A DNA stretch of 64,000 nt, taken from assembly GCF_964204865.1 (NCBI RefSeq), contig NC_135260.1, positions 21,266,001 to 21,330,000 on the forward strand, given 5' to 3'. Of the stretch, positions 34,779 through 64,000 are shown piece after piece (within the stretch, counting starts at the first letter, position 1; the number at the start of each line of letters is the position of its first letter). Source of the DNA: Styela clava. Lineage: Eukaryota. The notes under the pieces are model-generated. The model was not told the DNA's origin. It did not search any database and saw only the letters and a program-made list of their open reading frames with translations. The position numbers and the translations under genes were made by a program.

Positions 34779-34789
34779 ATGATAAAGCG

Positions 34790-38266: not shown

Positions 38267-38458
38267 ATTGATTTGGAGCTATTGAGTCAGTAATCATAGG
38301 AACACGGTATGTGCAACTCGAAGCTGGAATACATGCTGGGGGATCCTTACGATGGAAATACATTGATTTGGAGCTATTGAGTCAGTAATCATAGGAACAC
38401 GGTATGTGCAACTCGAAGCTGGAATACATGCTGGGGGATCCTTACGATGGAAATACAT
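38267..38458. repeat. Perfect tandem duplication of about 94 bp
   Basis: ATTGATTTGGAGCTATTGAGTCAG...GATGGAAATAC occurs twice. Confidence 0.9.
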
Positions 38459-40283: not shown

Positions 40284-40469
40284 TTTATTTCCAGTAATAT
40301 TCCAATAACGTAAATTCGAAATATCTTGTTAAAACCAAATTATCCACTTGAGAACAATTTTTTACATCTCATAATTGGAGTAATGCGTGGCCAGGAATAC
40401 GGTGACTTGGCAATAACAAGTTAATTGCTAGTAATGAACTTTAAGAAAACACTTTTAATAATGTTTGAT

Positions 40470-42256
40470 TATAGTGAACCGAAAGCTAACCAGAAACGGG
40501 AATGACCCGTGATTCGTTGATCGTTAATGTAAAAATCCGTTTCTTTATTCTATTTTAATTATCTGGCAGAAAGCTATATATTCAGCAATGTGTTTTGTGT
40601 TAATCAGACTAGATTTGATCTAATTGTGTGTACATTGTATTTTTGTATATATTGTCGGAATTACAATAAACTCGTAAGGTGTTTTCAAACGTCTCATTAC
40701 TACAGCCGAAGGCTATCGACAGATAGATAGTTCGAGTTAACTAACGCAAGACAAAATTATTGTCAATCAATGCTGGGGTTACAATACACAAATCAGACCA
40801 ATCTACAAACAATCTATGTGTAGTGATAACTAATCACTATATTTGGAGACCCCGACCTTTGGACTGCCTTCTGACTCAGATCAACCACGGAGCAGACAAC
40901 AATCCTACGGAGCCAGCCTACGGAGAGGAACTCGATAAGATAAGTTTCACGTTTTAATTTACATCCTATAAGTCGCAACTAAGGGTGCCTATTGCTAATC
41001 ATACAATTCTCTATCTTCCAACAGGCCTATCGCAAAAACTCGAGGAACCGTGCAACAAGAACTAAACTTACATCCTATAAGTCGCAACTAAGGGTGCCTA
41101 TTGCCAATCATACAATCCTCTATCTTCCAACAGGCCTATCGCAAAAACTCGAGGAACCGTGCAACAAGAACCAAACAAAGGATCAAACTCATCCATACAG
41201 TGAACGAAAAGGACATTTCACATCGCCCAAGGCAATATTGACTGTCTGACCTCGGAATTGAAGTATAATTCCTCAGCCGAATTTTGGTACGTACATCATT
41301 TTCGACTAACTTATGACGTCCATTTTCGACTAACTTATGACGTCAAGAATATTTCCATTCGATATCTTTTTGAAAAAGTCTATCTAAGGAAACCTCCGAG
41401 AGTAGCTCTTCCTTTGAAAAGTCACATTCTGGAAAAATTCAACTCATATCGTCCAAATTAAAAGCGAGTATGTCTCTTGATGATCAAACAAGAAAAGGTC
41501 ATTCTAGCACTTCGGGAAATTTTGATTTATTCAGCGATACTCATACTCCACCTTCCCGGCCATTACGACAATATGTCTCTTGAGATCCTTTTAAAATACC
41601 ATCATTTTGGATTGATTCCCCGCAATTATGGTTCAGATGCGTTGGGAGCGCATTTTCACGAGCAGGCATACCTACTGAAACCAAAAAATTTGATGAAGTT
41701 TTGACTGTTTTAGATAACTCAGTTATCGATAGAATTGGCTTGGATTTACTAGAGATACATGGAGTTAGGCCATATGCTCAGCTTAAGGAAGCTTTGTTGA
41801 CAAAATTTGCACCCACGGAAGATCAGAGATTGACTGCATTTTTGCACACTTCCGAACTAGGAGATCAAATGCCTTCTGAAATGCTAAAACGTTTGAAATT
41901 TTTAATCGGACCTGAACGTTTGCAGGAAACTCTTGCTAACAGCCTGCTCAAGAAGTTATTTTTAGAAAAGTTACCGTCATCTATCAGAAATATTTTGGCG
42001 TAAAACTACGACAATACAGTGGACCAATTGGCAATTCAAGCGGATCGAATCGTACAAAACTCGGATTTTTCAAAACAAGACACGTATGTACAAAGTCAGG
42101 TGCAAAATAAATTACTTGAAGCAAAAATTAATGACCTTGCCGATAGCTTCAGAGAATTTTCCACTAACTGGCAAAAACCGAATTTTGTCAATCATCAGAA
42201 TAAACGAGGATTTCAATCTACAAACAATCTATGTGTAGTGATAACTAATCACTATA
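40470..42256 (+). mobile_element. Truncated Gypsy-like LTR retrotransposon: 5' LTR 40470-40841, PBS, gag relic, 3' LTR stub
   Basis: LTR ends TATAGTGA...TCACTATA with an internal AATAAA; PBS-like TGGAGACCCCG at 40844; the last ~42 bp of the LTR recur at 42216-42256. Confidence 0.75.
41590..42215 (+). pseudogene. Gypsy gag relic
   Basis: PYAQLKEALLTKFAPTEDQRLTAFLHTSELGDQMPSEMLKRLK...LKKLFLEKLPSSIRNILA*...DQLAIQADRI, typical of invertebrate Gypsy gag; stops and frameshifts. Confidence 0.8.
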
Positions 42257-45200
42257 TATATATATATATATATATACATAAAAAATGTATGTAATTATTC
42301 TTTTATACAATACGATTTATATTTTCATCAATGATAATGTAACATCTTATAATATCTTAACAGACAATCAAAACAATGTTTCCTGAATTTCTCAACGTTT
42401 TTCTTGTTTCAAAATTTTCAATGTTTTGATTCTATGTTTGGAACTTATAGGCACGATAATTATGTCTAAAAACCGATAATTCCATTCCAAAGGAAGGGAG
42501 TATTATATAGGGATAGATTAATAATTTGACGAATATTTCTAAAAGCCAAGAAAAAGGCTGTAATAATTTGACGAATATTTCTAAAAGCCAAGAAAAAGAC
42601 TGATTATTAATATTGAAGAAATTCTCCCAATTTAAAAATCAGATCGATAAAAAGCCCGTTTTTAATTAGGCAACAGATGGCAACAGAAAAATAATTGGAT
42701 CGATTGCATGGCAGGTGGTAATTAGTATGCAAAACTCCAATCAATAAGGCTAATGGAATCGATATCACCATTCTAATCCTCGGAATATAGATTTATAGAT
42801 CAAAACCTTATACAATTCTTTAAAATTCTGATTAGGTTAAAATCCTGGGAAAGACATAATTATCGTATGTTTTCTGTATATGAGAGTAGGTCTTGCTGTT
42901 GTTCTATCCATTCTTACAACTATCGTGTCTTACAATTATGTATACTGTACAATAAACGAAAGAAAGGATTGTCGCAATTGTCCGTTTGTCTGCTGTCATC
43001 TATGGGGGGGGGGGGCAAAGGATCCTAAAACCTCCCTAAATGCAATTTAAAACTTCTTGGGCAACAGTTTTATCTATATTTATACACCTACAGCCACAGT
43101 CAGGTTTTGCATTTGCATTTGTCTTATTAGAACTGAATTCATCAGAATTGAGTAAATAAAGAATTGGGAGTATGTGCACAACAGTTTTCAAAACTTCTGA
43201 ATTTTTTGACAAGTTGATGGAGCCGCGATCTCCTTTTATAACTCTGAAAATCATAAACATGCAAATATCAGCAGCAATTTGATTGTAACTGCATATATTT
43301 CATCACAATATCGAAGAAGGAGTTTTTATTGTACGATAGAGACAGAAATAGGGTTGCGCAATAATATTTGATTATTCGGTTCGATTCGGGAAAATTTTTC
43401 TGTTTGACATTGTCTACCTAATTTTTTACATTATGGTGCTGTGCCAAGCTTGGAATTTGAATCGGAGTTTTTTGAATTGCAACCATGATACATGCTTTAA
43501 AAGGTTAGACTCTCATTCAATAAAAAACAAAATTGTTAAAAAAAAAACAGATAACATCGCGCAGGAAAAATAATTTGTTTCTTTATTTTTCACTTCGATA
43601 TTCTATGTTTAAGTGAGAAATTCAGGTTTGTATTGAAATTTTATTCTTGAAGGTCTTCATAATAGTAAATTATGTAGCTGTGTGCTTCATCCCTGGCTGA
43701 TAGTGAGTGGGGAAATTTTCTTTGTACTTGATTTTCAGATCCAAAAATTTTCTACTTTCATCAAGAATCATGACTCAAGGTGAAGCACAAATATGGGCCA
43801 ACATCATTAAAGTGTCTTTGCTATTTTATTAAGTTGTTGAAGAATAGTGAAGAGAGGGACTAGTTGGAATAAATAAAGTAGTTTTTATGCAGTGAGAAAT
43901 GGGAAAAAAGTTCTGAAATAAGGTTGGGAACTACTAGTCTGAAATATTATGTTTAAGATTATCACAATAGTTCCAGGAGGTTTTCTAAGTTTGCCCATGT
44001 ATGAATACATCTAAAATTATTCATATTTAATAATGCAGATTATTTGATTTGGGGACAAAATGGAATGTTTTTGACTAATTGGCATTCTTTTTTTTTGCAT
44101 AGTGCCAGTTTTACTAATTATGCAATTTTCCTTTTAACATTTTAGATATTCTGCAATCAAATAAATCATATTTTGAACATAAAGCCAACGATTCAACCAT
44201 TTATTATTGAATATAATATTTTATTGCAGAAATCTATCACTTCAGACCTGAATACATTTACTGTGAAATTGCCATCAAACCTAGTTTTATTTTTGTATGG
44301 TATTGAGGATAAATAAAGCACTTGCGTGATATGAAAGAGACAACAACGTACTTCAATTCCAAGATGGCAAAATTGCCAAAATTAAGTGAGTTTTCTTAAA
44401 TCCTGCTGTTTATATACTCAATGCTTGTAGGTTCAAATTTCAAAATTACCTAACCCAATTTGCCAATTTGAGTTTTTGTTCCTTAGCTGTCAAATTCAGG
44501 TACTCAAAAGTGTTGATAGCGCTTCCAGCTATTATTTATTTACCTATTTATTCCACCAAAGTGTAAGATAATATATAAATAATATATTTGAAACTTGTCG
44601 CAATGCACCAGTTATTCTGATATGATGATTCAACTCCGAGCCCCAGATTTAGATATTTATAGGTAATGTCTATAGCAGCGATTCCCAAAGGGTGTGCCGC
44701 GAAAATGAACATAATTTTGTTGAACATTTATTTTACTTTTCTATTTCGTTTATTGCTGAGAAACAGTAGAGGCAAACACTTCATAACAGAAAGTGAACGA
44801 CATGGGTTTATGACTTTGAATATTTTGTCTTCAGAATGGTTGATTTTTGGTAACAAAACAAAGTCATAGACCCATCAACCCATCAAATATGAACAAAAAG
44901 TAAAACAAACTAATAAATAACATTGCGACGAAGATTGCAAAAGTCAATCAAATATGTATAAATTGCATACATCAATCGATTGACCATACAGAAGATGAAT
45001 TTTCTGAAAAAATACATGAAACTTTCAAACTAATAAATATAGTTTGGAACAATATTTTAAAATTGTAATTAAAACTTACAATATAATATTGGTTTCCATC
45101 GTCGACCTTCGACGAACATTCTTGAATGAGGGTACATATAATTATCAGTCCAGGAGCGGTTTTAATATTGGTCCAAGTGTAGTACCAAACTCTCCTCCGA

Positions 45201-45607
45201 CTGGTTTATTGATATATATTTAAATTTTACCAGACATTTTACAAAGAGCGGTCATCTTCAATTTTGTTAGTAATCTAAACTTCTATCTATATAACATACA
45301 ACACTTTCAATTAATCTTGTAAACTCATTTTATCTATAATTTTCCTCATTCAAAGTTCAAATATTAATCATTATCTTATTTATAACCAAGTTGAATATTT
45401 CAACTTCGCCATATAAACCAGGCCAATCCGGACGTGAACAAAACATCACTGAAATATTGCAACAATAATTTAAAGATTAGTACGCAGATAAACGGGTTTT
45501 CTGATAATAGTTAGATAAATCACATCATTGTAGTATTCGACCACGGCTGATAACAGTTTGTTGATATACGTTTACGTCTAAAATGAGATCCTAGAGTTTT
45601 CTGTATA

Positions 45608-45753
45608 TTAATCCGGACTAATGCTCAAATTCCCAACGCTTATCTGAATTAACTAAGCGATAAGGATGCAAATTTGTATTAGCAAAAAGCGACTGCATTA
45701 TTTATTAGTTAATTCAGATAAACTTTGGGAATTTGAGCAATAGTCCGAATTAG
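45608..45753. mobile_element. MULE-like MITE
   Basis: TIR of about 48 bp TAATCCGGACTAATGCTCAAATTCCCAA... and its reverse complement; 10-bp direct flank TTTCTGTATA on both sides. Confidence 0.7.
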
Positions 45754-46972
45754 TTTCTGTATACAGCAGTTATTTTTTGCCCTTGCGACCCAGCTTATAT
45801 GCTATTCTGCAAGCTGTTATCAAACTACCGCGCGTTGGACGGTCGGAACAAGGAGCGCGAGAAAAATCTAATTTTGTGCAGAAAGTTGTATAAAATGATG
45901 GTAACGTAACTGTGTGGAAATAGCCAGTGCCGTGTTACAATGGTGTCGACCGCACAGGAGCAGATATTTTCCATTGCATAACTTGGGACAGAAGAGAAAC
46001 TGATGAAGCACAAAATGCTACTTTGGAAAGATGTTGTTGTTGTCGCATTTTGCTAACTCAAACCTCAGTTTTTCTTACAACCCAAGATGTTTCGTGTTCA
46101 TGCATGAAGCTCTATCACAATGGTACGTACGTCTAAGCTCTCGACATCTGTCATGAGTTACGTAAGCTATTTTATGAGTTGTTTATTCAATTAAATTGTA
46201 TTTGTGTGATGTACAATACTGATTCTTGCGTAATTTTGATAACAATATGCTTTCATTCTCATTATATTACAGTATTGTTTCAAAAATCTTTCATCGAGCC
46301 TCTGAAACAACTTCACAAAACCTGTGTAATATTATCCGTTTATTTCACAATGAATTATTATAAATACTTTTTATCTTTTGAAATTTTTACTCTCTCTTTC
46401 TCCATTAACACTTCGGCACAAAGTAAATAATTGCACGTACCCTATAGAATTAAAATTACATTGATGTGTCTTCAAAGTTAACATTATGTTTTCACCCGTT
46501 GTTGGCAAGTTGTGAGATAGATAGTGGGAAATTTGACTTAATGCTGTTCGATCGAAATTCGGGGGACAACGCAACATAATTTCTATTTATTAATTCTTCT
46601 GAAATAGAGCAATTTATGTGTTACCGTTTAAAAATCCAAATAAAAACGATTCATAAAAACGATTCCTGATTCGATTTTTAATTGTCTACCGAACATATTT
46701 AGATATTGTTAGCGGATATTCCTGAACAAAAAGATAGAATCCATTTATGGAAGTACAACGTCATTTAATTGATGTTGCGGTGATCGGAATTTCCGTCCGA
46801 CCTAAAGATTTCTGTTGATTTCCATGACGAAACACCATCAAACATGATTTTTTGTCATCTTATACCAGAGCTACAATTTTTACCAAAGATCCGTTTTCAA
46901 AACTTTGAAATCACTAAGTTATGTACTTTTAAATCAAACTCCAAAAAGCGTTATAAAGTCAAATACAAGTTA

Positions 46973-47210
46973 TTGGACACGTAGTGGACATAACGATCGT
47001 TTCAAAATTTTGTTGTTATTGTTATTATTTGTCTCCGTCAACACGTTTTGAAGACATCGCTTCTCTTCGAATACTGGACCAATTGCTTTGCAATTTTTAG
47101 TGGTTAAAGATAAAAATTTTCTCCAGAAGGCTATTACTTTTTTTCTTGCTATGACGTCATCAAAATTATGCGACTCTACGTGTCCATATATTTGAGAATA
47201 GTCTCTTGTT
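46973..47210. mobile_element. HINE/DINE-1-like insertion specific to array copy 1
   Basis: Absent at the homologous sites (about 52315, 56872, 59717); inserted at TT; sub-TIR TGGACACGT/ACGTGTCCA; (TTG/TTA)n tract. Confidence 0.55.
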
Positions 47211-48491
47211 CTCAAACAATGGACACGAATCTCGATCATCGAAACTGACTGGATCTGGAACGGCTAGGTCTTCGTTACCTAAGTGAGAACAAAGTGTGCC
47301 AACATAGATGTACAATCATTACAAATACAGACAAGCGTGGCTGAATAAAAACTATGTCGATATTTCAAAAGTGTTCCAATAATTAAAAACAAGTTTTCAA
47401 GGTTTATCGTGAAATACCTTGCCAACAAGTCATGAAAAATTTCAATCAACCTCTAGTACTGAAAGTTTGAAACCTATCCTTAGGGTGGTACTAATTATGC
47501 AATTTTCCTTTTGAACATTTTAGATATTCTGCAATTAAATAAATAATATTTTAAACATAAAGCCAACGATCCAACCATTTTTCATCTTGTCATTAATAAA
47601 TATATTTTCTTGCAGAAATCAAGACTCCATCTCAGACCTGCTGAATACATTGACTGTTAAACAAACCTAGTGTTATTTTTTGTATGTATTGAGAATAAAT
47701 AAAGCACTTGCATGATATGAAAAAGACAGCAACGTCTTATAATTACAAGATGACAATCATTCCTCAAAATGTAAGTACCTATGGCTATGTGGTAAAATTG
47801 AAGAATAATATTTTTCTGTAGAGGGGTAAGTTTTCTTTAATCCTGCTGTTTTTATTACTCAGTGCTGTGATTTGTCGACAATTAAGGCATGCCTGTAAAG
47901 GTTCATATTTCAAAAATACCTAACCCAATACGAGTTTTTGTACTTTAGGTGTCAAATTCAGGTACTCAGTGTTGATGGAGCTTCCAACTATTTAGTGACC
48001 CTATTTTATCAGGGTGTAAGATTTAAAAAAATATATCCAAAACATTTCGCTATGCGCCAGTCATTCTAATATCTAATAGATAGGATGGCTTACACATAGC
48101 CATAACGTGATGATCCAACTCTGAGCCCTATATTTAAATATTTACAGTTAATGTCAATAGCAGCTATTTCCAAAGGGTGTGCCGCGAAAATGAACATAAT
48201 TTTGTTGAACATTTATTTCACCTTTTTATGTCGTTTATTGTTGAGTAACAATAGAGGCAAACACTATATAATAGACAGTAAACGACACAGGTCTATGACT
48301 TTGAATATTTTTTCTTCAGAATAGTTGAATCAACCTCAAAGTCATAGACCCATCAAATATGAACAAAAGGTAAAACTAATAAATAACATTGCGATGGAAG
48401 ATTGCAAAAGTCAATCAAATATGTCTAAATTGCATATATTAATGCTTAACAAAGCATACAAATAACCGTTGCATATTTTATGTTATGCAGG

Positions 48492-49310
48492 ACTCGCTAG
48501 AACATTAGCAGATGTTGTTATGTACTACAGTAACGGGGGGGAGAAACAATCGAAAGCTTGACTAAAATTTCATCCGCAATTGTTGGGCTCCTCCAACCCT
48601 ATCTTAGCAAAGGGAACCAAGTATTTTGTGACAGGCTTCATATGTCATTGAACTTGGCAGATTATCTACGTGAAAAAAAAACATATCTGACATATCAGAA
48701 AAGGAGCCCCTGCTGAAATAAAATAAAAGCCTGATTCAATGCGGAGTTGTAAGATTGATTATGCTTTAAACTTTGGACTGACAAAAGGCCCCCACGATGA
48801 TCTTCATTTATTATCGTGGAGATGAAACAATCACTAAGGAAGTAAAAGGGCTCGAATCAACTGTCAATAAACAGTCTGTTGGAAAATATAATCAATTTAT
48901 GGGGGTCGTCCCGGCAGACCAATACACATTTTGCAAATTTAGCAGAAAGTCTGTAAGTGGTGTGAAAAGGTTTTTGGCTCAGAAATATGTGCAACAAAGA
49001 AGTGGTCCAGGCCGGCTGAAGAGACCAAATTTATTCATTTGCTTAGCTTCAGCAGAGACCTAACACCCGATCAGGTGAATGTTGGGAGAGGGGCAACTCA
49101 GCGGAATCGACGATTCCGATCGGCATCTGCCCTCGTTGGATCGAACAGAAATAAATACAATTTATGTTCAGAAAATGTTCGGGTCTGGGCAGAGACTTGA
49201 AGAATGAACTTTTGCAGCAAAGGCATAATGGGCGTACGCAAAGTCACATTTTATTGTCAGTGTAGGGAAGCCTGGGCTTCATTCTGAGCTTTTCCCATTA
49301 TCATCTTCAA
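48492..49310 (+). pseudogene. piggyBac transposase relic (3' part)
   Basis: LLQPYLSKGNQVFCD, KQSVGKYNQFMG(G)V, FSRKS and a decayed Cys-rich tail. Confidence 0.8.
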
Positions 49311-52300
49311 AGTGGAGATAGTTTGTAGGTTTAGTGTCATAGTGTATATAAATCATTTGTAAACAAATGCATCGTTTCTATGTTATTCAATGTATGTATT
49401 TGCTGTTCTGTACTGTCATCATTGCACTATTGTACAGTGTACTAAAGTCATTTCCATATGTGATAATCCTCTGTGTATATATCCACCGTGTCATTGTTGA
49501 TTTTTATTTATAAAAATTCATTATGTTCATTTGGAGTTTCTACAGTGTGCTATTGACAGTTTTCGCAGATCCAGGTGTATGCAGATTTTGGGGTACAATG
49601 GGGAAATACAGCCAAATATGGGAATTGAAGTATGACAGAACAATGGTATTCAGCAAACGAATAAGACGAAGACCAGACAATCACGGCACGAGTATTTTCA
49701 AATTAAAGATATAAGATAAAATATTGAATACAAATACGAAAATATTGAAACACGTATATTAAGCAAAGAGCTATTATTTCAAGCCCACAGACGGAAGGCG
49801 CTGATTTCAGCAAACAAGAGATAAGGCTCACAAAGCCATAACTACTCTCGCGAGCAACAATGTTTTGGAAGTCCCGAACTATCTTGAAACTTGAAGCAAT
49901 TGTTTTGGCAGTGAATGTCGAATTTCAAAACAATACGCCGCTTCATTTATAAAATCTTTCACTCTTACTAATTTCCCTTTCTTTCCCGTCCCCGCCCCAT
50001 AAAGTTTTTGTTTACAGTTTGTATATACAGTATACATGTGTTTGATGTAACAAACTATGAATATTTTTCATCAATAGTTATATAGCAATGATATTGACAA
50101 CACTGACTTTATTGAATAATTTAATTCAGAAATAAGATAGATAATTATGAAATGTTCAATTATTATATTTGACATTTCATGCAAAGCTGCAAAACAAAAT
50201 ATTGACAAACGAGCTAACATGGATCCATATGTTGTAGGGGTAATCGGCAATGGCCATTTATTGAATACTGTGGTGATTCCGCATTTCACTCTGCGAAGCA
50301 TCATGGACAATGCCCATGCGATATACAAGAGAGAAATTATCCAACACGTTCCAAATCATTTACGGACATGAACATATTGGTGAAGACCGTTTCTTTTTTA
50401 CAAGACCGAGCTTTCGCATGAATGACCCAGAAGTGGAAGCTATCATCACAAGCATTGCAACTTTTGGTATCTTCAACATGTCGCTAGAACATTTTAAGAC
50501 TGTACATAGAGAATGTATTAAAAACAAGCAAACCGCTCAATCTGGCGGTTTTTGAAAGCGGGTCAGTTCAGTTTCGAATTGAAATGATGCTACCAAGAGG
50601 GGTTGGAAATTATAACGCGTAACTTGGTCGGAGACGCCAAATCGAAGATTTCGCACTTATTCTTAGCAGGTAAACTCTCAAATTACTAACAAATATGATT
50701 AGCTACACGAATATTGCTTGCGTGAAAATGTTACTGTAAAAAATCGACAACAAAAAAGAACCGAAAAGATATTTTGACATATTTCAAGACTACAACAAAA
50801 AAGTTCGCACAACGAAGGAACCGTATTTGTAGGCCCAATGACATCCAGTTGATTGAATTTCGGATATACTCAAGTTTTAGACGCACGAGAGACGAGTATG
50901 CGGTTATCAACGTAAAGGTGCAGCATATTTGGGGCTGTTAATTAGAAGATAGCTACGTCTCTCCTTCGAAGGTGCTCAGAGATGCACGTTCCAACTTCCA
51001 ATATGATGCAACGAGTATGTAGATCTTCCACAGATACTATTTATCGATAAAACCAAATAAGGTAATTCGGAAAACAAATTAGCTCTATATTCTGTAATTC
51101 CTTCCAGGTACACTTTCTCACTATCTATTTAAAGGCGTTAAAATCGGCTATAAATTACAAAACATTTCAAAATCGAACTCTAGCATACCAGTACGTCTAG
51201 ACTTGGCCAATTGATAATGCTTCTTATATCCAATTTTAATTTCGGAAACTTGAATCTCAGACAAATTGAATAAATCGCAGCAAGCGAAACTTTACAAAGC
51301 CATATTTTACACTTATTGCCCAATGAAGGCTATTCAATTACGGCAAAATGCCTCATTCGAAGCGCTACATCATTAATATACGAGCTGTATAGCTAACTCA
51401 TTGTGAAACTAAATGTATAGAATGTCTAGTTGAAGACAACTTTGTAAACGCCTTTATCGTTTATAAATCCCATTTTATCGGCGTTATAGGCTAGCATGGC
51501 ATTTAGGTATGTTAGGTATTATCTGTTTATCTCACAATGAATTATTAGGATCTTATTCATCGTAATATTATTTTTAATCTATAGTTTCTTTACTTTAATT
51601 ATCACGTTTTGAATAAGTTCACAACCATGCTTTCATATCCACGTGTCTACAATACATGCACGAAAAACATAGGTCGAACTCTAAACATATGAGATTGCGA
51701 GTCCTTGACTCAAGTCTAAAGTGCACACTTGATTTTGGGAGTTGATTATCAAATCATCACAGCCATCAAATTTTATATTATATATATACTTTTCATCTTT
51801 TGGAATTTTTACTCTCTCCATTAGCACTTTGGCACAAACTAAATAATTGCACGTGCCCTATAGAATTAAAACTACATTGATGTGTCTTCAAAGTTAACAT
51901 CATGTTTTCACCTGTTGGTAAGTTGTGAGATAGTGGGAAATTTGACTTAATACTGTTCGATCGAAATGCGAGGGACAACGCAACATTAATTTCTATTTAT
52001 TAATTTTTCTGAAATAGAGCAATTTATGTGTTACTGTTTCAGCTGGTTGAATCAGCTGGTTGAATAGGTCTGAAAATTGTCTAAAAATCCAAATAAAAAA
52101 CTATTCATAAAAACGATTCCTCATTCGATTTTTAATTGTCTATCGAGCATATTTAGATATTGTTAGCGGATATTCCTGAACAAAAAGATAGAATCAATTG
52201 GTATTCATTGTAAGTACAACGTCATTTAATTCGTTTTCAAAACTTTGAAATCACTAAGTTATGTACTTTTAAATCAAACTCCAAAATGCATTATAAAATC

Positions 52301-52832
52301 AAATACAAAGGGTAATTCTCAAACATATAGACACGAATCCCGATCATCGATACCGACTAGTACGACTAGGTCTTCGTTACCTAAGTGAGAACAAAGTTTG
52401 CCAACATAGATGTACAATCGTTACAAATACAGACAAGCGTGGCTGAATATAGACAAGCGTGGCTGAATAAAAACTATGTCGATATTTAAAAAGTGTTCCA
52501 ATAATTAAAAACAAGTTTTCAAGGTTTATCGTGAAATACCTTGCCAACAAGTCATGAAAAATTTCAATCAAGCTCTAGTACTGAAAGTTTGAAACCTATC
52601 GTTAGGGTGGTACTAATTATGCAATTTTCCCTTTGAACATTTTAGATATTCTGCAATCAAATAAATAATATTTTAAACATAAAGCCAACGATCCAACCAT
52701 TTTTCATCTTGTCAGTAATAAATATATTTTCTTGCAGAAACCAGACTCCAACTTAGACCTGCTGAATACATTGACTGTGAAACAAACCTAGTGTTATTTT
52801 TTGTATGTATAGAGAATAAATAAAGCCCATTG

Positions 52833-53817
52833 ATGTCGTACAAAAATTCCAACATTTCGTTCCTTATCAACAGTTCTCGACAGACAAATCTATGATAGGG
52901 TATAATGTATATATTTCAACAATACAACCCGAAGAAGCCAATAAAGTGGGCTCCTTGCTAGAACATTGGCAGATGCCAAGACTGGATATTTTTTGAAAAT
53001 ATTTATGTACTACAGTAACGGGGGGAAAGAAACAATCGGAAGCTTGACTAAAATTTCATCCGCAATTGTTGGGCTCCTCCAACCCTATCTTAGCAAAGAG
53101 TATTTTGAGTAACCAAGTATTTTGTGACAGGCTTCATATGTCATTGAACTTGGCAGATTGTCTACATGAAAAGAAAACATATCTGACATATCAGAAAAGG
53201 CGTCCCTGCTGAAATAAAAAAAAAAAAACAGCCCGATTTCAATGCGGAGTTGCAAGATTATGCTTCAAACTTAGGACTGACAAAAGGCCCCCACGATGAT
53301 CTTCATTTATTATCGTGGAGATGAAACAATCACTAAGAACGTAAAAGGGCTCGAATCAACTGTCAATAAACCGTCTGTTGGAAAATATAATCAATTTATG
53401 GGGGTCGTCCCGGCCGGCCAATACACATTTTACAAATTTAGTAGAAAGTCTGTTAAGTGGTGTAAAAATTTGTTTTTTGGCTCATAGAAATATGTGTAAC
53501 AAAGAAGTGGTCCAGGCCGGCTGAAGAGACCAAATCTATTCATTTGCTTAGCTTCAGCAGAGACCTTACACCCGATCAGGTGAATGTTGGGAGAGGGGCA
53601 ACTCAGCGGAATCGACGATTCCGATCGGCCTCTGCCCTCGTTGTGCGAACCGAAACAAATACAATTCATGTTCAGAAATTGTTCGGGTCTGGGCAAAGAA
53701 TTGAAGAATGAACTTTTGCAGCTACGCTATAATGGGCGTACGCAAAGACACGACATTTTATTGTCAGTGTAGAGAAGCCTGGGCTTCATTCTGGGCTTTT
53801 CCCATTATCATCTTCAA
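52833..53817 (+). pseudogene. piggyBac transposase relic
   Basis: QQFSTDKSMIGY, QYNPKKPIKWA, ADAKTGY, KPSVGKYNQFMG, FSRKSVKWCKNLFF. Confidence 0.85.
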
Positions 53818-54704
53818 AGAGGAGATAGTCGGTGGAGCAGTGTATATAAATCATTTGTAAACAAATGCATCGTTTCTATGTTATTCACTGTATGTACTTG
53901 CTGTTCTGTACTGTCATCATTGTACACTGTGCTAAAGTCATTTCCATACGTGATAATCCGTTGTGTATATATCCACCGTGTCATTGTTGATTTTTATTTA
54001 TAAAAATTCATTATGTTCATTAGTGTGTGAAGTTTCTATAGTGTGCTATTGATAGTTTTTGCAGATCCAGGTTTATGCAGATTTTGGGGTACAATGGGGA
54101 AATACAGCGAAATAAGGGAATTAAAGTATGACAGAACAATGATAACAAACTCGGAAAATATTCAGCAAACGAATAAGACGAAGACCAGACAATCAGGGCA
54201 TGAGCATTTTCAAATTAAAGATATAAGATGAAAAATTGAACTCAAATACGAAAATATTGAAACACGTTATGTTAAGCAAGCAAAGAGCTATTATTTCAAG
54301 CTCACAGATGGAATAAATTATTTTTTCAAAGGCGCTAATTTCAGCAAACAAGAGATAAGGCTCACAAAGCCATAACTACTCTCGCGAGCAACAAATGTTA
54401 TTGTTTCATGAAATATGTTTTGGAATTCCAAAACTATCTTGAAACTTGAAGCAATTGTTTTGGCTGTGAATATCGAATTTCATAACAATACGACGATTCT
54501 TCTCTAAAATATTTCACTATTACTAATTTCCCTTTCTTCCCCTTCTCCGCCCCACAAAGTTCTTGTTTACAGTTTGTATATACAGTATATACATGTGTTT
54601 GATATAACAAACTATGAATATTTTTCATCAATAGTTGATATAGCAATGATATTGACAACACTGCCTTCATTAAATAATTTAATTCAGAAATGAGTTAGAT
54701 AATT

Positions 54705-56020
54705 ATGAAATGTTCAATTCTTATATTTGACATTATTTCATGCAAAGCTGACAAACGAGCTAACATGGATCTATATGTTGTAGGGGTAATCGGCAATGGC
54801 CATTTGTTGAATACTGTGGTGATTCCGCATTTCATTCTGCGAAGCATCATGGACAATGTCCGTGCGATATACAAGAGAGAAATTATCCAACACGTTCCAA
54901 ATCATTTACGGACATGAACATATTGGTGAAGACTCGTTTTTTACAAGACCGAGCTTTCGCATGAATGACCCAGAAGTGGAAGCTATCATCACAAGCATTG
55001 CAACTTTTGGTATCTTCAACATGTCGCTAGAACATTTTAAGACTGTACATAGAGAATGTATTAAAAACAAGCAAACCGCTCAATCTGGCGGTTTTCGAAA
55101 GCGGGCCAGTTCAGTTTCGAATTGAAATAATGCGTACCTGCAGATGGTGCTCACTTGTATTCACTTGGTGATGATGCTACTAAGAGGGGTTAGAAATTAT
55201 AACGCGTAACTGGTCGGAGACGCCAAATCGAAGATTTCGCACGTATTCTTAGCAGGTAAGCACCCAAATTACTAACAAATATGATTAGCTACACGAATAT
55301 TGCTTGCGTGAAAATGTTACTGTAAAAAATCGACAACAAAAAAGGACCGAAAAGATATTTTGACATATTTCAAAACTACAGCAAAAAAGTTGGCACAACG
55401 CAGGAACCGTATTTGTAGGCCCAATGACATCCAGTTGATTGAATTTCGGATATACTCAAGTTTTAGACGCACGAGAGACGAGTATGCGGTTATCAACGTA
55501 AAGGTGCAGCATGTTTGGGGGCTGTTAATTAGGAGATAGCTACGTCTCTCCTTCGAAGGTGCTCAGAGATGCACGTTCCAACTTCCAATATGATGCAACG
55601 AGTATGCAGATCTTCCACAGATACTATTTATCGATAAAACCAAATAAGGTAATTCGGAAAACAAATTAGCTCTATATTCTGTAATTCTTTCCAGGTACAC
55701 TTTCTCTCTTTAAAGGCGTTAAAATCGGCTATAAATTACAAAACATTTCAAAATCAAACTCTAGCATACCAGTACGTCTAGACTTGGCCAATTGATAATG
55801 CATCTTATATCCAATTTTGATTTCGGAAACTTGAATCTCAGACAAATTGAATAAATCGCAGCAAGCGAAACTTTACAAAGCGATATTTTACACTTATTGC
55901 CCAATGAAGGCTATTCAATTACGGCAAAATGCCTCATTCAGAGCGCTACATCATTAATATACGAGCTGTATAGCTAACTCGTTGTGAAACTAAATGTATA
56001 GAATGTCTAGTTGAAGACAA
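54705..56020 (+). pseudogene. Unidentified intronless ORF relic of about 430 codons (copies at 50147-51420 and 63335-64000)
   Basis: Protein-like blocks persist through stops and frameshifts: MDLYVVGVIGNGHLLNTVVIPHF, DPEVEAIITSIATFGIFNMSLEHF, RICRPNDIQLIEFRIYSSF, RLGQLIMHLISNFDFGNL, DILHLLPNEGYSITAKCLI. No family recognised. Confidence 0.45.
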
Positions 56021-56029
56021 CTTTGAATG

Positions 56030-56550
56030 TCTAGTTGAAGACAACTTTGTAAACGCCTTTATCGTTTATAAATCCCATTTTATCGGCGTTATAGGCTAGC
56101 ATGGCATTTAGATAATTAGGTATTATCTGTTTATTTCACAATGAATTATTGGGATCTATAGTTTCTTTACTTTAATTATCACGTTTTGAATAAGTTCACA
56201 ACCATGCTTTCATATCCACGTGTCTACAATACGTGCACGAAAAACATAGGTCGAACTCTAATGAGATTGCGAGTCCTTGACTCAGGTCTAAAGTGCACAC
56301 TTGATTTTGGGAGTTGATAATCAAATCATCACAGCCATCAAATTTTATATTATATATATACTTTTCATCTTTTGGAATTTTTACTCTCTCCATTAGCACT
56401 TTGGCACAAACTATATAATTGCACGTACCCTATAGAATTAAAACTACATTGATGTGTCTTCAAAGTTAACATCATGTTTTCACCTGTTGGTAAGTTGTGA
56501 GATAGTGGGAAATTTGACTTAATACTGTTCGATCGAAATGCGAGGGACAA
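56030..56550 (-). pseudogene. Unidentified convergent ORF relic (copies at 51426-51978 and 46371-46577, partial)
   Basis: Blocks HNLPTGENMMLTLKTHQCSFNSIGYVQLYSLC, YIYNIKFDGCDDLIINSQNQVCTLDLSQGLAISLEFDLCFSCTYC and IIPNYLNAMLAYNADKMGFINDKGVYKVVFN*. Confidence 0.4.
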
Positions 56551-58649
56551 CGCAACATTAATTTCTATTTATTAATTTTTCTGAAATAGAGCAATTTATG
56601 TGTTACTGTTTCAGCTGGTTGAATAGGTCTGAAAATGGTCTAAAAATCCAAATAAAAAACTATTCATAAAAACGATTCCTCATTCGATTTTTAATTGTCT
56701 ATCGAGCATATTTAGATATTGTTAGCGGATATTCCTGAACAAAAAGATAGAATCAATTGGTATTTATGGTAAGTACAACGTCATTTAATTCGTTTTCAAA
56801 ACTTTGAAATCACTAAGTTATGTACTTTAAATCGAACTCCAAAATGCAATATAAAATCAAATACAAGATTTATTCTCCAACATATAGACACGAATCTCGA
56901 TCGTCGATACCGACTGGTACGGCTAGGTCTTCGTTACCTAAGTGAGAACAAAGTTTGCCAACATAGATGTACAATCGTTACAAATACAGACAAGCGTGGC
57001 TGACTAAAAACTGTCGATATTTCAAAAGTTTTCCCAATAATTAAAAACAAGTTTTAAGGTTTATCGTGAAATACCTTGCCAACAAGTCATAAAAAATTTC
57101 AATCAATCTCAGGGTGGTACTAATTATGCAATTTTCCTTTTGAACATTTTAAATATTCTGCAATCAAATAAAGAATATTTTGAACATAAAGCCAACGATC
57201 CAACCTTTTTTCATCTAGTCATTAATAAATATAATATTTTCTTGCAGAAATCTGACTCCATCTCAGACCTGCTGACTACATTGACTGTGAAACATACCTA
57301 GTGTTATTTTATGTATGTATTGAGGATAAATAAAGCATTTGCATGATATGAAAAAGACAGCAACGTCTTATAATTACAGGACCACAATTATTCCTCAAAA
57401 AGTACCTATGTGGTAAAAATCAGAGAATAAAATTTTTTTCGAGAGTGGTAACCCAATTTGAAATTTTCACTTTAGGTGTCAAATTCAGGTACTCAAAGGT
57501 GTTGATAGCGCTTCCAGCTATTTATTGACCTTATTTTATCAGGGTGTAAGATTTAAAAAATATATCTAAAACATGTCGCAATGCGCCGGTCATTCTAATT
57601 ATCTAATAGATAGAATGGCTTACACATAGCCATAACGTGATGATCCAAATCTGAGCCCTATATTTAAATATTTACAGTTAATGTCTATAGCAGCGATTCT
57701 CATGGGGAGTGCCGCGAAAATGAACATAATTTTGTTGAAAATTTATTTCACCTTTTTATGTCGTTTATTGTTAAGTATTGTTGAGTAACAATAGAGGCAA
57801 ACCCTACATAATAGACAATAAACGACACGGGTCTATGACTTTGAATGTTTTTTCTTCAGAATGGTTGATCAACCAAAGTCATAGACCCATCAAATACCAA
57901 CAAAAGGTAATAACATTGCGACGGAAGATTGCAAAAGTCAATCAAATATGTCTAAATTACATATATTAATGCTTAACAAAGCATACAAAAAACCGATGCC
58001 TATTTTGGGTTATGCAGGAGCTGTAGGAGCTTTTCTGAATAAGGGTGACGTCCTGCTATTTCCTCACTAACTAGAATAACATCAGCTTAGTGCTTCTCGT
58101 ATTCATGAATTGTTTACGGAAATTGATTCGTTTGGATGCTTTGATTGACCTTCAGGAGGTGAATCTCTCGAAAAAAAAGTATTCAAGAATATTCAAGACT
58201 AATTGAAACGAATAAATATAACTTGGAACATTATTTTAAAATTGATGCTCAGATCAATAATGCACTATAACATTGGTTTCCGTCGTCGACCTTAGACGAA
58301 CATGACAACTTGGAGGAGGGTACATAGAATTCTTAGACCAGAAGGAGCAGCATTTAATATTCAGTCCAAGTGAAGTCCCAAACTCTCCTCCGACTGGTAT
58401 ACATTTTGTCAGGTATTTCAAAAAGAGCGTCATCTTCAATTTTTTATAGGTAAATGAAACTTCTATATATGTAATAAACAATACTTCCAACATTGTAATG
58501 AATGATATCGTATATTACTCGTCGTCGTGAGTGATCATGGTGAGTAAAATCAAGATATGCTGACTTCATGCTAATTGGATATTTTGTTCTTATGATATAA
58601 TTGGGTTCTGGAGTTTGTGTAAGTTTGTAACACTGTTTATTCACATTTA

Positions 58650-59437
58650 GATTCAAACGAAGACAGCAAAGAGGAATATATTCTCGAAGTCAGTGTTGGA
58701 AGCGATTCTGAAGAACTCGATGATCAACCATCTACAGCTCCGTCCGTCAAAGAGAGCTAAAATAACAAGAAGAGGTTGAGCTAGACGACTGAGAGGTGCT
58801 AGACAACAAGCTCCAGCTGATATTGTGACAAGAAAATAAAGCGAGATGTTACTTCCAATAATGATATGGCCCAAAAACCCAGTATAACTTTCGAAATCAA
58901 GGTTGTGGGGGTAAAGAAATGCCGCCAACTGATAGTAGATCGAATGATTAGTTCAAACTCTTTTTAGCGAGGAATGAGTAATCATTATAGTCGTGGATAG
59001 AAACCTTTGACTGTTGGTCCGATTCGCGGTATCTACACCATGACTTGTTTGCAAATGCCATTTTCCGAAGTGGACTCCAGGCCATTTTCCATACAATGCT
59101 TCAATGTTGTGATATCTCGAAGGACAAATGGGGATAAAATACAGTCCATCATCAACTATGTCGTACAAAAATTCCAACATTTCGTTTCTTATCAACAGTT
59201 CTCGACAGACGAGTCTATGATAGGGTATAAGGTATCTATTTCAACAATACAACCCGAATAAGCCAATAAAGTGGGGACTCCTTGCTAGAACATTGGCAGA
59301 TGCCTAGACTGGATATTTATTGAAAATATTTATGTACTACAGTAACGGGGGGAAAAAAACAATCGAAAGCTTGACTAAAATTTCATCCGCAATTGTTGGG
59401 CTCCTCCAACCCTATCTTAGCAAAGGGAACCAAGTAT
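58650..59437 (+). pseudogene. piggyBac transposase relic (5' part)
   Basis: Acidic N-terminus DSEELDDQPST, DKIQSIINYVVQKFQ, QQFSTDESMIGYK (first catalytic Asp motif). Confidence 0.82.
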
Positions 59438-61629
59438 TGTTTACAGCTTTGTGTATACATGTGTTTGATATAACAAACTATGAATATTTTCTTCAATAGT
59501 TAATATAGCAATGATATTGACAACACTGCCTTTATTAAATAATTTAATTCAGAAAAGAGATAGGAAATGTTTAATTCTTATATTTGAAGATAGAATCTAT
59601 TGGTATTCATGGTAAGTACAACGTCATTTAATTCGTTTTCAAAACTTTGAAATCACTAAGTTATGTACTTTAAAATCAAACTCCAAAATGCATTATAAAA
59701 TCAAATACAAAGGGTAATTCTCAAACATATGACACGAATCCCGATCATCGATACCGACTGGTACGGCTAGGTCTTCGTTACCTAAGTGAGAACAAAGTTT
59801 GCCAACATAGATGTACAATCGTTACAAATACAGACAAGCGTGGCTGAATATAGACAAGCGTGGCTGAATAAAAACTATGTTGATATTTCAAAAGTGTTCC
59901 AATAATAAAAAACAAGTTTTCAAGGTTTATCGTGAAATACCTTGCCAACAAGTCATGAAAAATTTCAATCAAGCTCTAGTACTGAAAGTTTGAAACCTAT
60001 CGTTAGGGTGGTACTAATTATGCAATTTTCCCTTTGGAACATTTTAGATATTCTGCAATCAAATAAATAATATTTTAAACATAAAGCCAACGATCCAACC
60101 ATTTTTCATCTTGTCAGTAATAAATATATTTTCTTGCAGAAACCAGACTCCAACTTAGACCTGCTGAATACATTGACTGTGAAACAAACCTAGTGTTATT
60201 TTTTGTATGTATAGAGAATAAATAAAGCACTTGCATGATATGAAAAAGACAACAACGTCTTATAATAATTACAGTATGACAATCATTCCTCAAAAAGTAC
60301 ATATGTGGTAAAATTCAGAGAATAATATTTTTCTGTATAGTGGTAAGTTTTCTTAAATCCTGGTGTTTTTTTATTACTGAGTGCTGTGATCTGTCGACAA
60401 GGCATGCTTGTAAAGGTTCAAATACCTAATCCAATTTGAGTTTTCGTACCTTAGGTTTCAAATTCAGGTACTCAGTGTTGATAGCGCTTCCAGCTATTCA
60501 TTGACCCTATTTTATCAGGGTGTAAGATTTAAAAAATATATCTAAAACATGTCGCAATGCGCCAGTCATTCTAATTATCTAATAGATAAGATGGCTCACA
60601 CATAGCCATAAAGTGATGATCCAAATCTGAGCCCTATATTTGAATATTTACAGTTAATGTCTATAGCAGCGATTCCCAAGGGGTGTGCCGCGAAAATGAT
60701 CATAATTTTGTTGAACATTTATTTCACCTTTTTATGTCGTTTATTGTTGAGTAACAATAGAGGCAAACACTACATAATAAACAGTAAACGACAAGGGGAT
60801 ATGACTTTGAATATTTTTTCTCCAGCATGGTTGAATCAACCAAAGTCCTAGAGACCTAGACCCAACGAATATGAACAAAAAGTAAAACGAACTAATAAAT
60901 AACATTGCGACGGAAGATTGCAAAAGTCCATCAAATATGTTAGACAAAGCATACAAATAAATAACCGATGCATATTTTATGTTATGCAGGAGCTGTAGGA
61001 GTTTTTCTGAATAAGGGTGGCGTTACCTGCTATTTCCTCACTAACTAGAATAACATTCTTATTTTACAGTTAGTTATATTGCATTTTCCATGACGACTAG
61101 TGCAATATTTTAAAACTATTTATAAAAAAATCCAGCTTAGTGCTTCTCGTATTCGTGAATCGTTTACGGAAATATCGATTTGTTTTGATGACTTGATTGG
61201 ACTTCAAGGAGGTGAATCTTTCGAAAAAAAAATTCATAGAATATTCAAGACTAATTGAAACGAATAAATATAACTTGGAACATTATTTTAAAATTGAGAT
61301 GAAAACCGATGCTCAGATCAATGAATACACTATGATAATTGTTTTCATCGTCGACCTTAGACGAACATGACAACATGAAGGGGGGTACATAGAATTCTTA
61401 GAGCAGGAGCGGCATTTAATATTCAGTCAAAGTGAAGTCCCAAACTCTCCTCCGACGGGTGTACATTTTGTTAGATATTTCAAAAAGAGCGTCATCTTCA
61501 TTTTTTTTATAGGTAAATGAAACTTCTATATATCATATGTAATAAATAATACTTCCAACCTTGTAATTGAATGATATCGTATTTTACTGGAGTTTGTGTA
61601 AGTTTGTAACAATGTTTATTCACATTTAG

Positions 61630-62955
61630 ATTCAAACGAAGACAGAAAAGAGGAATATATTCCCGAAGTCAGTGTTGGAAGAGATTCTGAAGAACTTGAT
61701 GATTAACCATCTACAGCTCCGTCAAAGAGCTAAAATAATAACAGGTCGACTAGACGACAGAGGTGCTAGACAACAAGATCCAGCTGATATTGTGATAAGA
61801 AAATAAAGTGAGATGTTACTTCCAATATTGATATGGCCCAAGAACCCAGTATAACTTTCGAAATTAAGGTTGTGGGGGTAAAGAAATGCCGCCATGTGAT
61901 AGTAGATTGAATGATTATTTCAAACTCTTTTTAGCCAGGAATTAGTAACCATTATAGTGGTGGATAGAAACTTTTGTGACTGATGGTCCGATTCGCCGTA
62001 TCTACACCATGACTTGTTTGCAAATGCCATTTTTCGAAGTGGATTCCAGGCCATTTTCCATACAATGCTTCAATGTTGTGATATCTCGAAGGACAAATTG
62101 GGATAAAATACAGTCCATCATCAACTATGTCGTACAAAAATTCCAACGTTTCGTTCCTTATCAACAGTTCTCGACAGACAAATCTATGATAGGGTATAAT
62201 GTATATATTTCAACAATACAACCCGAAGAAGCCAATAAAGTGGGCTCCTTGCTAGAACATTGGCAGATGCCAAGACTGGATATATTTTGAAAATATTTAT
62301 GTACTACAGTAACGGGGGGAAAGAAACAATCGGAAGCTTGACTAAAATTTCATCCGCAATTGTTGGGCTCCTCCAACCCTATCTTAGCAAAGAGAACCAA
62401 GTATTTTGTGACAGGCTTCATATGTCATTGAACTTGGCAGATTGACTACATGAAAAGAAAACATATCTGACATATCAGAAAAGGCGTCCCTGCTGAAATA
62501 AAAAAAAAAACAGCCCGATTTCAATGCGGAGTTGCAAGATTATGCTTTAAACTTAGGACTGACAAAAGGCCCCCACGATGATCTTCATTTAATATCGTGG
62601 AGATGAAACAATCACTAAGGACGTAAAAGGGCTCGAATCAACTGTCAATAAACCGTCTGTTGGAAAATATAATCAATTTATGGGGGTCGTCCCGGCCGGC
62701 CAATACACATTTTACAAATTCAGTAGAAAGTCGGTTAAGTGGTTTAAAAAGTTGTTTTTTTGGCTCATAGAAATATGTGTAACAAAGAAGTGGTCCAGGC
62801 CGGATGAAGAGACCAAATCTATTCATTTGCTTAGCTTCAGCAGAGACCTTACACCCGATCATGTGAATGTTGGGAGAGGGGCAACTCATCGGAATCGACG
62901 ATTCCGATCGGCATCTGCCCTCGTTGTGCGAACCGAAACAAATACAATTCATGTT
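61630..62955 (+). pseudogene. piggyBac (PGBD4-like) transposase relic, most complete copy
   Basis: DKIQSIINYVVQKFQRFVPYQQFSTDKSMIGY, ADAKTGYILKIFMYY, VFCDR, KYNQFMG, FSRKSVKWFKKLFFWLIEI across frameshifts. Confidence 0.88.
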
Positions 62956-64000
62956 TTTCAAAGGCGCTAATTTCAGCAAACAAGAGATAAGGCTCACAGA
63001 GCCATAACTACTCTCGCGAGCAACAAATGTTATTGTTTCATGAAATATGTTTTGGAATTCCAAAACTATCTTGAAACTTGAAGCAATTGTTTTGGCTGTG
63101 AATATCGAATTTCATAACATTACGCCGATTCTTTTCTAAAATATTTCACTCTTACTAATTTCCCTTTCTTTCCCTTCTCCGCCCCACAAAGTTCTTGTGT
63201 ACAGTTTGTATATACAGTATACATGTGTTTGATATAACAAACTATGAATATTTTTCATCAATAGTTTTTATTTCAATGATATTGACAACACTGCCTTCAT
63301 TAAATAATTTAATTCAGAAATGAGTTAGATAATTATGAAATGTTCAATTCTTATATTTGACATTATTTCTTGCAAAGCTGACAAACGAGCTAACATGGAT
63401 CTATATGTTGTAGGGGTAATCGGCAATGGCCATTTGTTGAATACTGTGGTGATTCCGCATTTCATTCTGCGAAGCATCATGGACAATGTCCATGCGATAT
63501 ACAAGAGAGAAATTATCCAACACGTTCCAAATCATTTACGGACATGAACATATTGGTGAAGACTCGTTTTTTACAAGACCGAGCTTTCGCATGATTGACC
63601 CAGAAGTGGAAGCTACCATCACAAGCATTGCAACTTTTGGTATCTTCAACATGTCGCTAGAACATTTTAAGACTGTACATAGAGAATGTATTAAAAACAA
63701 GCAAACCGCTCAATCTGGCGGTTTTCGAAAGCGGGCCAGTTCAGTTTCGAATTGAAATAATGCGTACCTGCAGATGGTGCTCACTTGTATTCACTTGGTG
63801 ATGATGCTACCAAGAGGGGTTAGAAATTATAACGCGTAACTGGTCGGAGACGCCAAATCGAAGATTTCGCACTTATTCTTAGCAGGTAAGCACCCAAATT
63901 ACTAACAAATATGATTAGCTACACGAATATTGCTTGCGTGAAAATGTTACTGTAAAAAATCGACAACAAAAAAGGACCGAAAAGATATTTTGACATATTT

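Follow-up and report, generated by a model that had tools for sequence, protein, structure and literature searches.

The window, i.e., the whole 64,000-nt stretch of Styela clava contig NC_135260.1 that was analysed, contained a head-to-tail array of five same-orientation units (U1 to U5; 3377, 5122, 4507, 2894, and >3989 nt, respectively), each opened by an 18-nt anchor that recurred at 44112, 47489, 52611, 57118, and 60012, all on one strand. This anchor spacing agreed with the five units of about 3.4, 5.1, 4.5, 2.9, and >4.0 kb described in the initial annotation. U5 was cut by the window end at 64000, and the right edge of the array lay beyond it. At the left edge, anchor/unit comparison found no unit homology left of 44112, and none of 12 comparisons (left flank with unit, and head with neighbouring hAT elements) exceeded the shuffled maxima. 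The features were as follows:

44112 to 47488, + strand: U1, the edge copy, composed of head, unique segment, and tail, without piggyBac or DUF6589 module
44676 to 44702, + strand: hAT-type end stub (copies at 48161, 57691, and 60667), with 8-9 mismatches per 27 nt against hAT-like ends at 32090 and 33079
45326 to 46329, unstranded: segment found in U1 alone, 1004 nt
45609 to 45752, unstranded: MITE-like inverted repeat within the U1-only segment, 144 nt (55-nt arms, 87% complementary)
46970 to 47210, + strand: 5' remnant of a hAT element with a BED finger, of which U2 to U4 have lost most
47481 to 47487, + strand: TAGGGTG at the unit junction (also at 52603 and 60004), a possible hATm terminus matching the terminus consensus (PMC6004678)
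47489 to 52610, + strand: U2, with a deletion fusing the head to mid-piggyBac at 48492/48496 (3-nt filler)
52611 to 57117, + strand: U3, with a 1.9-kb deletion at 52826/52833 (6-nt filler)
57118 to 60011, + strand: U4, with 2-nt microhomology at the 59438 deletion and 1 nt at the 59587 junction
60012 to 64000, + strand: U5, sister copy of U3 (0-2.9%), bearing a 650-nt deletion at 62955 with 2-nt microhomology
61587 to 62955, + strand: dead piggyBac transposase, 5' part and core (U5), by profile and structure-sequence matches
48496 to 49330, 52833 to 53830, and 58608 to 59438, + strand: other piggyBac parts, the second with a Cys-rich end read by eye
54750 to 55281, + strand: dead DUF6589-family DDE transposase core (U3), by HMM, with copies at 50195 to 50695 and 63380 to 63911
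55282 to 56100, + strand: region once read as a - strand ORF, with no - strand signal and a weak colinear DUF6589 match at 55503 to 55613

The unit was composed of remnants of unrelated DNA transposons, namely piggyBac, a DUF6589-family DDE transposase, a BED-finger hAT element (5' part), and a hAT end stub, and this nest replaces the composite of piggyBac, orphan ORF, and foreign sequence proposed before. The module order had previously been given as constant. The hAT-type stub was present in four of the five units, but U1 lacked the piggyBac and ORF modules, U4 lacked the ORF module, and U3 lacked the stub. Overlap of the piggyBac-bearing copies (U5 60012 to 62955 plus U3 53673 to 57117) gave 6389 nt, the earlier estimate of about 6.4 kb; U1 additionally kept two tail stretches, of 118 and 231 nt, missing in U2 to U4, and the 231-nt piece is ancestral as judged from its resemblance to a neighbouring hAT, so that 6.4 kb is a lower bound and the ancestral unit would have been a piece of roughly 6-7 kb.

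The piggyBac assignment was based on a PF13843 match (E 1.2e-12, in one of 25 frames scanned) and a match to piggyBat transposase 9c0f (E 8e-6). The longest + frame was 81-121 codons across all four piggyBac copies and at most 110 in their majority consensus; three comparisons around the gene yielded no inverted match beyond shuffled maxima, and no TTAA-flanked ends were seen, the same outcome as in the initial annotation. This remnant shared core and Cys-rich end with piggyBac transposons (PF13843) but had no TIRs, TTAA, or open frame; piggyBac was a passenger of the unit. The view that piggyBac transposition did not build the array is supported.

The hAT-type stub, presumably of hAT origin, was located ~565-680 nt inside the unit, away from the junction, and was absent from U3. 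The BED-finger hAT remnant matched 34480 to 34566 (73% over 99 nt, E 5e-9), with zf-BED at 34769. No hAT transposase was matched in 21 frames of head and tail, and Rfam gave no matches at the gathering threshold.

The supposed + strand orphan ORF belonged to a family, DUF6589: an HMM built from 21 relatives matched the core at E 4.1e-17 and 6.3e-18, PF20231 (DUF6589) was matched by 16 of 17 longer relatives at E<=0.01 (6/17 above its cut-off), and the core was 37-40% identical to its best relatives. The longest open frame in this region was partly a wrong frame. The intact relative P0016, modelled in place of the remnant (pLDDT 78), had P-element transposase as best VIA match (Z 8.0, rmsd 5.7, 263 aligned), followed by integrases, Hermes, and Tn5, and its acidic residues were conserved across relatives (D47 in 41/41, D257 in 60/60, and E500 in 39/41); Foldseek of the same model against PDB returned nothing at E<=0.001, and the family profile, run against PDB sequences, returned zinc-ribbon-like ribosomal proteins only (E>=0.011). 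Judged by this homology and modelling, the ORF is a decayed second DDE transposase gene, with an RNase H-like fold bearing D, D, and E predicted from P0016. It resembled the DUF6589 (PF20231) family in core homology, the relatives having the predicted fold and the conserved acidic residues, but was itself truncated, internally deleted, frameshifted, and without element ends. From its motifs, the gene may be Academ-like. Academ elements are described with TIRs and 3-4 or 9-10 bp target duplications (excerpted text of PMC10045372), and no element ends were left here for comparison. A single publication naming DUF6589 came up, and it does not mention a DDE-like fold; the link may stand in Kojima 2020 or Repbase.

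The convergent - strand ORF of the initial annotation could not be retained: its longest - frames (50 codons in U2 and 49 in U3; control median 68, 134 segments) and fewest stops (7 and 9; control median 8.5, with 7 or fewer in 50 of the 148 controls) made it no more open than control DNA, and searches of Pfam, PHROG (E<0.1), and PDB matched nothing in the region. An amino-acid composition test for coding was without power, the known core itself scoring within the null. A viral origin of the + ORF region was likewise dropped, six frames and two relatives having no PHROG match (E<0.1). The DUF6589 C-terminus was not detected colinearly beyond 55613, and a scrambled gene was considered: (i) four out-of-order + pieces (~54124-54291, 50264-50380, 50738-50827, and 51087-51236) beat 44/44 controls with a 22-sequence profile; (ii) with an 87-sequence HMM, one piece alone kept its position, in U2 only; and (iii) with averaged-BLOSUM profiles of old and new sequences, two or three pieces reached z 2.9-5.1, against z 3.1 and 2.8 in minus-strand and reversed-profile controls. 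One piece overlapped a colinear match, and the out-of-order pieces are at most suggestive.

Divergence between units was 0-20%, depending on module. U1 differed from the other units by 10.7-20.6% in the head and 4.0-5.3% in the tail (U1/U2, 76/564 [13.5%] vs. 28/587 [4.8%], Fisher p 3e-7; U1/U4, 76/562 vs. 10/247, Fisher p 2e-5). Internal heads were also more diverged (~7%) than internal tails (1-4%), and therefore part of this edge asymmetry is regional; within the head, U1 was the outlier in 4/4 tests, one with p 0.053. The junction blocks were nested (J2/J4, 5/494 differences; the other five pairs, 3.4-5.8%), and U2/U3 was mosaic at 50137, with 85/1373 differences (6.2%) to the left and 52/2205 (2.4%) to the right (0/2000 permutations as extreme). 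Copy divergence was thus nested and mosaic, not star-like. Large deletions, their breakpoints marked by 1-2 nt microhomology or by 3-6 nt filler, further distinguished the copies. Other tandem duplications in the window measured 95, 109, 163, and 317 nt, and one of 8.1 kb had an internal deletion.

We consider the array, at a probability of roughly 0.7, to have arisen from part of a transposon graveyard by local, segmental tandem amplification, followed by unequal exchange, re-duplication, and end-joining deletions. The ancestor of the copies already had broken coding parts, since lesions were common to copies: all three copies with the DUF6589 core held the same three in-frame stops of the U3 core, and no piggyBac copy had a frame above 121 codons, in keeping with the earlier statements that many lesions are shared and that amplification postdates gene death. 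The order of events, which is based on pairwise distances (no tree) and a small sample of 7 breakpoints, would be as follows: at about 11-15% divergence, a founding duplication gave a dimer and with it the tail/head junction; the chimeric unit bearing this junction was next multiplied by unequal exchange (3.4-5.8%); at about 1%, some 7.4 kb running from 52185 to 59587 were duplicated, which gave rise to U5 and to the junction between U4 and U5; and end-joining deletions eroded every copy. Such two-stage growth, from small tandem to unequal exchange, and deletions inside TE arrays are described in the available part of PMC5932611.

The youngest step could also be read as an assembly artefact in which U5, the other haplotype of U3, was joined at 59587: U3 and U5 had 0-2.9% differences and reciprocal deletions, the sequence from 59587 onward was a 1%-diverged copy of that from 52185, the high identity beginning exactly at this junction, the window held a near-identical duplication at 17-29 kb, and U5 and the neighbouring 8.1-kb duplication (1/1571 and 1/1731 differences) could represent haplotypes left uncollapsed. 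This reading is quite improbable, as U1 to U4 showed 1.2-17% differences, private deletions, and a transition excess (431 transitions and 419 transversions over all, non-independent pairs; unlike random base error), which is beyond two haplotypes and leaves at least four units.

Among the mechanisms offered earlier, unequal exchange agreed with the mosaic divergence, but rolling-circle replication or eccDNA did not agree with the nested mosaic ages. In that reading, a Helitron-like concatemer or re-integrated circle would have laid the copies in one event; every copy and both transposase remnants were on one strand, and rolling-circle concatemers have been proposed to give rise to TE arrays (PMC5932611, in part), but copy ages were unequal (1% to 20%) and copies mosaic, no Rep/helicase was matched in the frames scanned (part of those of the unit), and the array started with TACT, not the 5' TC that defines Helitron HLE1 together with a 3' hairpin and CTRR (PMC11417382, in part). 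No hairpin (stem score >=6, GC >=50%) preceded CTRR-T on either strand from 43500 to 64000, and the 25 longest of 1341 inverted-repeat pairs included none of HLE2/Helentron type near the junctions, a comparison that decayed 12-16 nt repeats could escape. A one-event origin is very unlikely.

The junctions themselves could point to a transposase. TAGGGTG was found at three of the four internal junctions, the fourth (57110) reading CAGGGTG after a 28-nt deletion that took its first base; the motif occurred once elsewhere in the window (both strands), and its junction copies lay 8 nt left of the start of U1 homology. hATm termini are given as 5'-TAGGGTG and CACCCTA-3' in the text seen of PMC6004678, and maize Ac ends produce tandem direct duplications of 8 kb or more (PMC3744419, in part). 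The first duplication may thus have been non-random, with a transposon end as its source: hATm transposase would have made it, by (a) alternative transposition of the reversed-ends type, in which an hATm end was joined to a target in a hAT remnant nearby, or (b) double insertion of an hATm element that carried nested transposons; further growth would have been by unequal exchange. This account seems doubtful, because the motif was noticed post hoc, U1 itself lacked it, no CACCCTA-type partner end was present in the window even with up to 25% mismatch allowed, the junction had no target duplication of 8-9 nt, and the 21 head/tail frames gave no hAT transposase; what the array offers is a direct duplication, several kb long, whose junction may carry a hAT end, in more than two copies. 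An equally tentative combined scenario has an hATm end joined into the neighbouring dead hAT to give a founding dimer seeding a composite satellite, caught early, with the DUF6589 gene as a same-strand, out-of-order patchwork from an older duplication-deletion round; if true, it would be an animal case of transposase-made tandem duplication seeding a composite satellite from a transposon graveyard.

The graveyard amplification preferred here makes this an ordinary kind of repeat array and no new mobile element; the array encodes nothing and is most likely without function. Its maintenance as a piRNA-cluster-like transposon store is hardly credible on sequence grounds: the surroundings were TE-dense, and graveyard loci may include piRNA clusters (PMC12628747, in part), but no sequence feature favoured this reading, the transposon remnants of the window lay on both strands, and the copies were losing TE sequence, not gaining it. 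The term nascent macrosatellite was fair as a description of five kb-scale tandem units, repeated head to tail as in a satellite, but these units were not homogenised within the window (0-20% divergence; 2.9-5.1 kb).

As far as the excerpts of PMC5932611 go (McGurk and Barbash 2018), Drosophila TE-derived arrays (R1, Bari1, hobo, and the D. guanche P-related array) are likewise kb-scale head-to-tail transposon units with lost terminal repeats, post-expansion internal deletions, and growth by unequal exchange, but their unit is a single element, often with a junction target duplication, whereas the unit here was a nest of several dead elements in five copies within the window. In the hypothesis of Satovic-Vuksic, Majcen and Plohl (2025; PMC12628747, in part), 'TE graveyards' give rise to composite satellites whose tandem monomers likewise have successive degraded-TE stretches; the monomer here was 6-7 kb, of low copy, and not homogenised, and would thus represent at most an early stage of a composite satellite. 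A search that left subscription journals and Repbase aside found no literature joining piggyBac, tandem array, and macrosatellite. Tandem arrays of transposon debris are already known, and the array as such matters little. It offers a worked example of a composite repeat growing from a transposon graveyard, as hypothesised in PMC12628747; three of its stages can be dated, and it shows several kb-scale deletions for every few percent of divergence. The side result, DUF6589 relatives with a predicted DDE-transposase fold, may outweigh the array in usefulness.

The array was genuine, and an anchor word on the same strand at 44112, 47489, 52611, 57118, and 60012 divided it into five units (U1 to U5) up to the window end at 64000. 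U5 60012-62955 and U3 53673-57117, added together, gave 6389 nt, in agreement with the ancestral unit of about 6.4 kb proposed in the initial annotation. The constant module order proposed with it held for the shared strand of the five units but not for their content: U1 contained neither piggyBac nor the ORF module (an "orphan" + strand ORF plus a convergent - strand ORF), and U4 also had no ORF module. U1 harbored a unique 1004-nt stretch and, in its tail (right part), two extra pieces, 118 and 231 nt long. The longer piece resembled the 5' part of a BED-finger hAT element (34480 onward; 73% across 99 nt, E 5e-9), and since this likeness carried on at its edges, its absence from U2 to U4 reflects loss.

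The window was animal DNA with about 35% GC. A vinculin start was located on the - strand at 11573 by motif scan, with a - strand exon at 7848-8306 matching PF01044 (Pfam E 7.4e-9), which places the array about 32 kb from that start codon, on its upstream side. Its surroundings were rich in mariner, hAT, and Gypsy remnants.

Features outside the array (window positions)
11847-12902, - strand: stop-free mariner transposase frame (351 codons), possibly young or intact; it ends upstream of the vinculin start, some 270 nt away
40799-42291: remnant of a Gypsy-like gag (DUF7041, E 1.5e-13) with an identical 44-nt repeat on either side, at 40799 and 42214; the repeats are probably what is left of the LTRs of a deleted element
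30046-32090, - strand: decayed hAT element with Spin-doc finger and hAT dimerisation domain, end motif at 32090
about 34400-36140, + strand: decayed hAT element with BED finger, end motif at 36140
19952-22702, + strand: short frames, among them one weakly matching SAM (E 0.021); by sequence, the frames look like parts of a further decayed or spliced gene
13422-14092, 10100-10376, and 28749-29453: MITE-like inverted-repeat elements
38267-38458, 39663-40284, 40959-41176, and 17626-17951: tandem duplications in two copies (96-100% identity), with lengths of 95, 317, 109, and 163 nt, respectively

An 8.1-kb duplication at 17280-28726 was arranged X..M..Y X' Y', the 4.8-kb middle being absent from the second copy: 17280-18858 was repeated at 25412-26991 (1/1571 differences) and 23664-25412 at 26988-28726 (1/1731), i.e., two bases differed in 3302. 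It could be a very recent duplication or an uncollapsed haplotype (an assembly effect). Together with the short tandem duplications, it displayed an array-like duplicating habit elsewhere in the window; local duplication occurs at many scales in this region.

The piggyBac remnant matched PF13843 (E 1.2e-12, one of 25 frames), and its nearest solved protein was piggyBat transposase (E 8e-6). Its longest + strand frame did not exceed 121 codons in any copy or 110 in the majority consensus. Three inverted-repeat searches around the gene all stayed under shuffled maxima, in line with the lack of piggyBac TIRs noted earlier; the array is not a piggyBac element.

The + strand ORF proved not to be an orphan: it was a dead DUF6589-family core (54750-55281 in U3, with copies in U2 and U5). 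Searched with stops as X against 1.84 billion proteins, the U3 frame retrieved four at E<=0.001. The top match (6.2e-8, 40% identity) carried DUF6589 at E 1.6e-5, under the curated cut-off; DUF6589 was matched by 16 of 17 longer relatives, above cut-off in six. When 1278 window chunks were screened with an HMM of 21 relatives, matches fell at 55024-55302 (E 4.1e-17) and at 63651-63929 (E 6.3e-18); a second colinear piece adjoined upstream (z 5.9-11 versus 44 control segments), and a weaker one lay at 55503-55613 in U3 only (2/200 shuffles). Out-of-order + strand matches, seemingly significant with the first profile, were mostly lost with a larger HMM and marginal by a third method, in which controls themselves attained z 3.1, and a scrambled DUF6589 gene is not claimed.

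The species-named eukaryotic relatives were from clam and sea urchin only, which would suit a marine invertebrate as host. D47 (41/41) and D257 (60/60) were invariant and located at strand ends, and E500 was nearly invariant (39/41) on a helix. The predicted model of one relative, P0016 (pLDDT 78), had P-element transposase as its top structural match (a middling Z of 8.0, rmsd 5.7, 263 aligned), followed by integrases, Hermes, and Tn5; a Foldseek search with this model gave no match at E<=0.001. We read the family, possibly "Academ-like" from its motifs, as a DDE transposase. The relatives (P0006-P0088) reached about 1000 aa, with an RNase H-like fold and invariant acidic residues; they resemble transposases belonging to a family widespread in animals.

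The array's genes were already dead when copied, as the initial annotation had held: three in-frame stops of the DUF6589 remnant were common to all three copies, the U2 copy having one extra stop and a 44-nt deletion, and between-copy changes were nine non-synonymous versus one synonymous. The convergent - strand ORF (55282-56100 in U3) fell away: its longest frames were 50 and 49 codons versus a control median of 68, its stop counts were ordinary against controls, Pfam, PHROGs, and PDB gave no match, and no - strand DUF6589-profile signal was present (0/36 profile windows beat all shuffles). We treat it as not real.

Rolling-circle or eccDNA amplification, also offered earlier, did not fit: a one-step concatemer would give copies of equal age, contradicted by U1 versus U2 divergence of 13.5% in the head (left part) and 4.8% in the tail (p 3e-7), and no Helitron 3' end was found (ends as defined in the accessible text of PMC11417382); by the ends tested, the array is not a Helitron. 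Growth would instead have begun with a founding dimer, each internal unit deriving its tail from copy one and its head from copy two, which predicts the U1 asymmetry. This is qualified by internal heads being more diverged than internal tails as well, although U1 remained the outlier within the head alone (p 0.0008 to 0.053, four tests). Blocks at the internal tail-head junctions differed by 3.4-5.8%, save J2/J4 at 1.0%; this near-identity began precisely at the 59587 breakpoint and most plausibly reflects a re-duplication of 7.4 kb, with 1 nt microhomology at the joint. U2/U3 divergence dropped from 6.2% to 2.4% near 50137 (0/2000 permutations), a mosaic that, judged by sequence, marks unequal exchange or conversion, the former being among the mechanisms first suggested. 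Among five breakpoints inspected in the array, three had 1-2 nt microhomology and two had 3-6 nt filler.

That an hATm end took part in the first duplication seems improbable. TAGGGTG, the hATm terminus in the part of PMC6004678 available, occurred at three of four internal junctions, 8 nt left of the U1 homology start, and once elsewhere in the window, and maize hAT ends can produce tandem direct duplications (PMC3744419, in part). However, the motif was recognised post hoc and was missing from U1, and searches turned up neither a partner end nor a target duplication nor any hATm coding remnant.

A search thin on subscription journals found no publication combining piggyBac, tandem array, and macrosatellite; further related literature, available in part, comprises PMC10799480, PMC10294476, bioRxiv 2025.10.24.684071, PMC10045372, and PMC5751038. 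As far as the accessible texts go, Drosophila TE arrays grew by unequal exchange, lost termini, and accumulated deletions (PMC5932611), and composite monomers are hypothesized to arise from transposon graveyards (PMC12628747); the array here behaves like both. Of the "nascent macrosatellite" idea, the five head-to-tail units stand, but the array is a candidate only. It is real, its earlier description was partly wrong, and known processes suffice for it.
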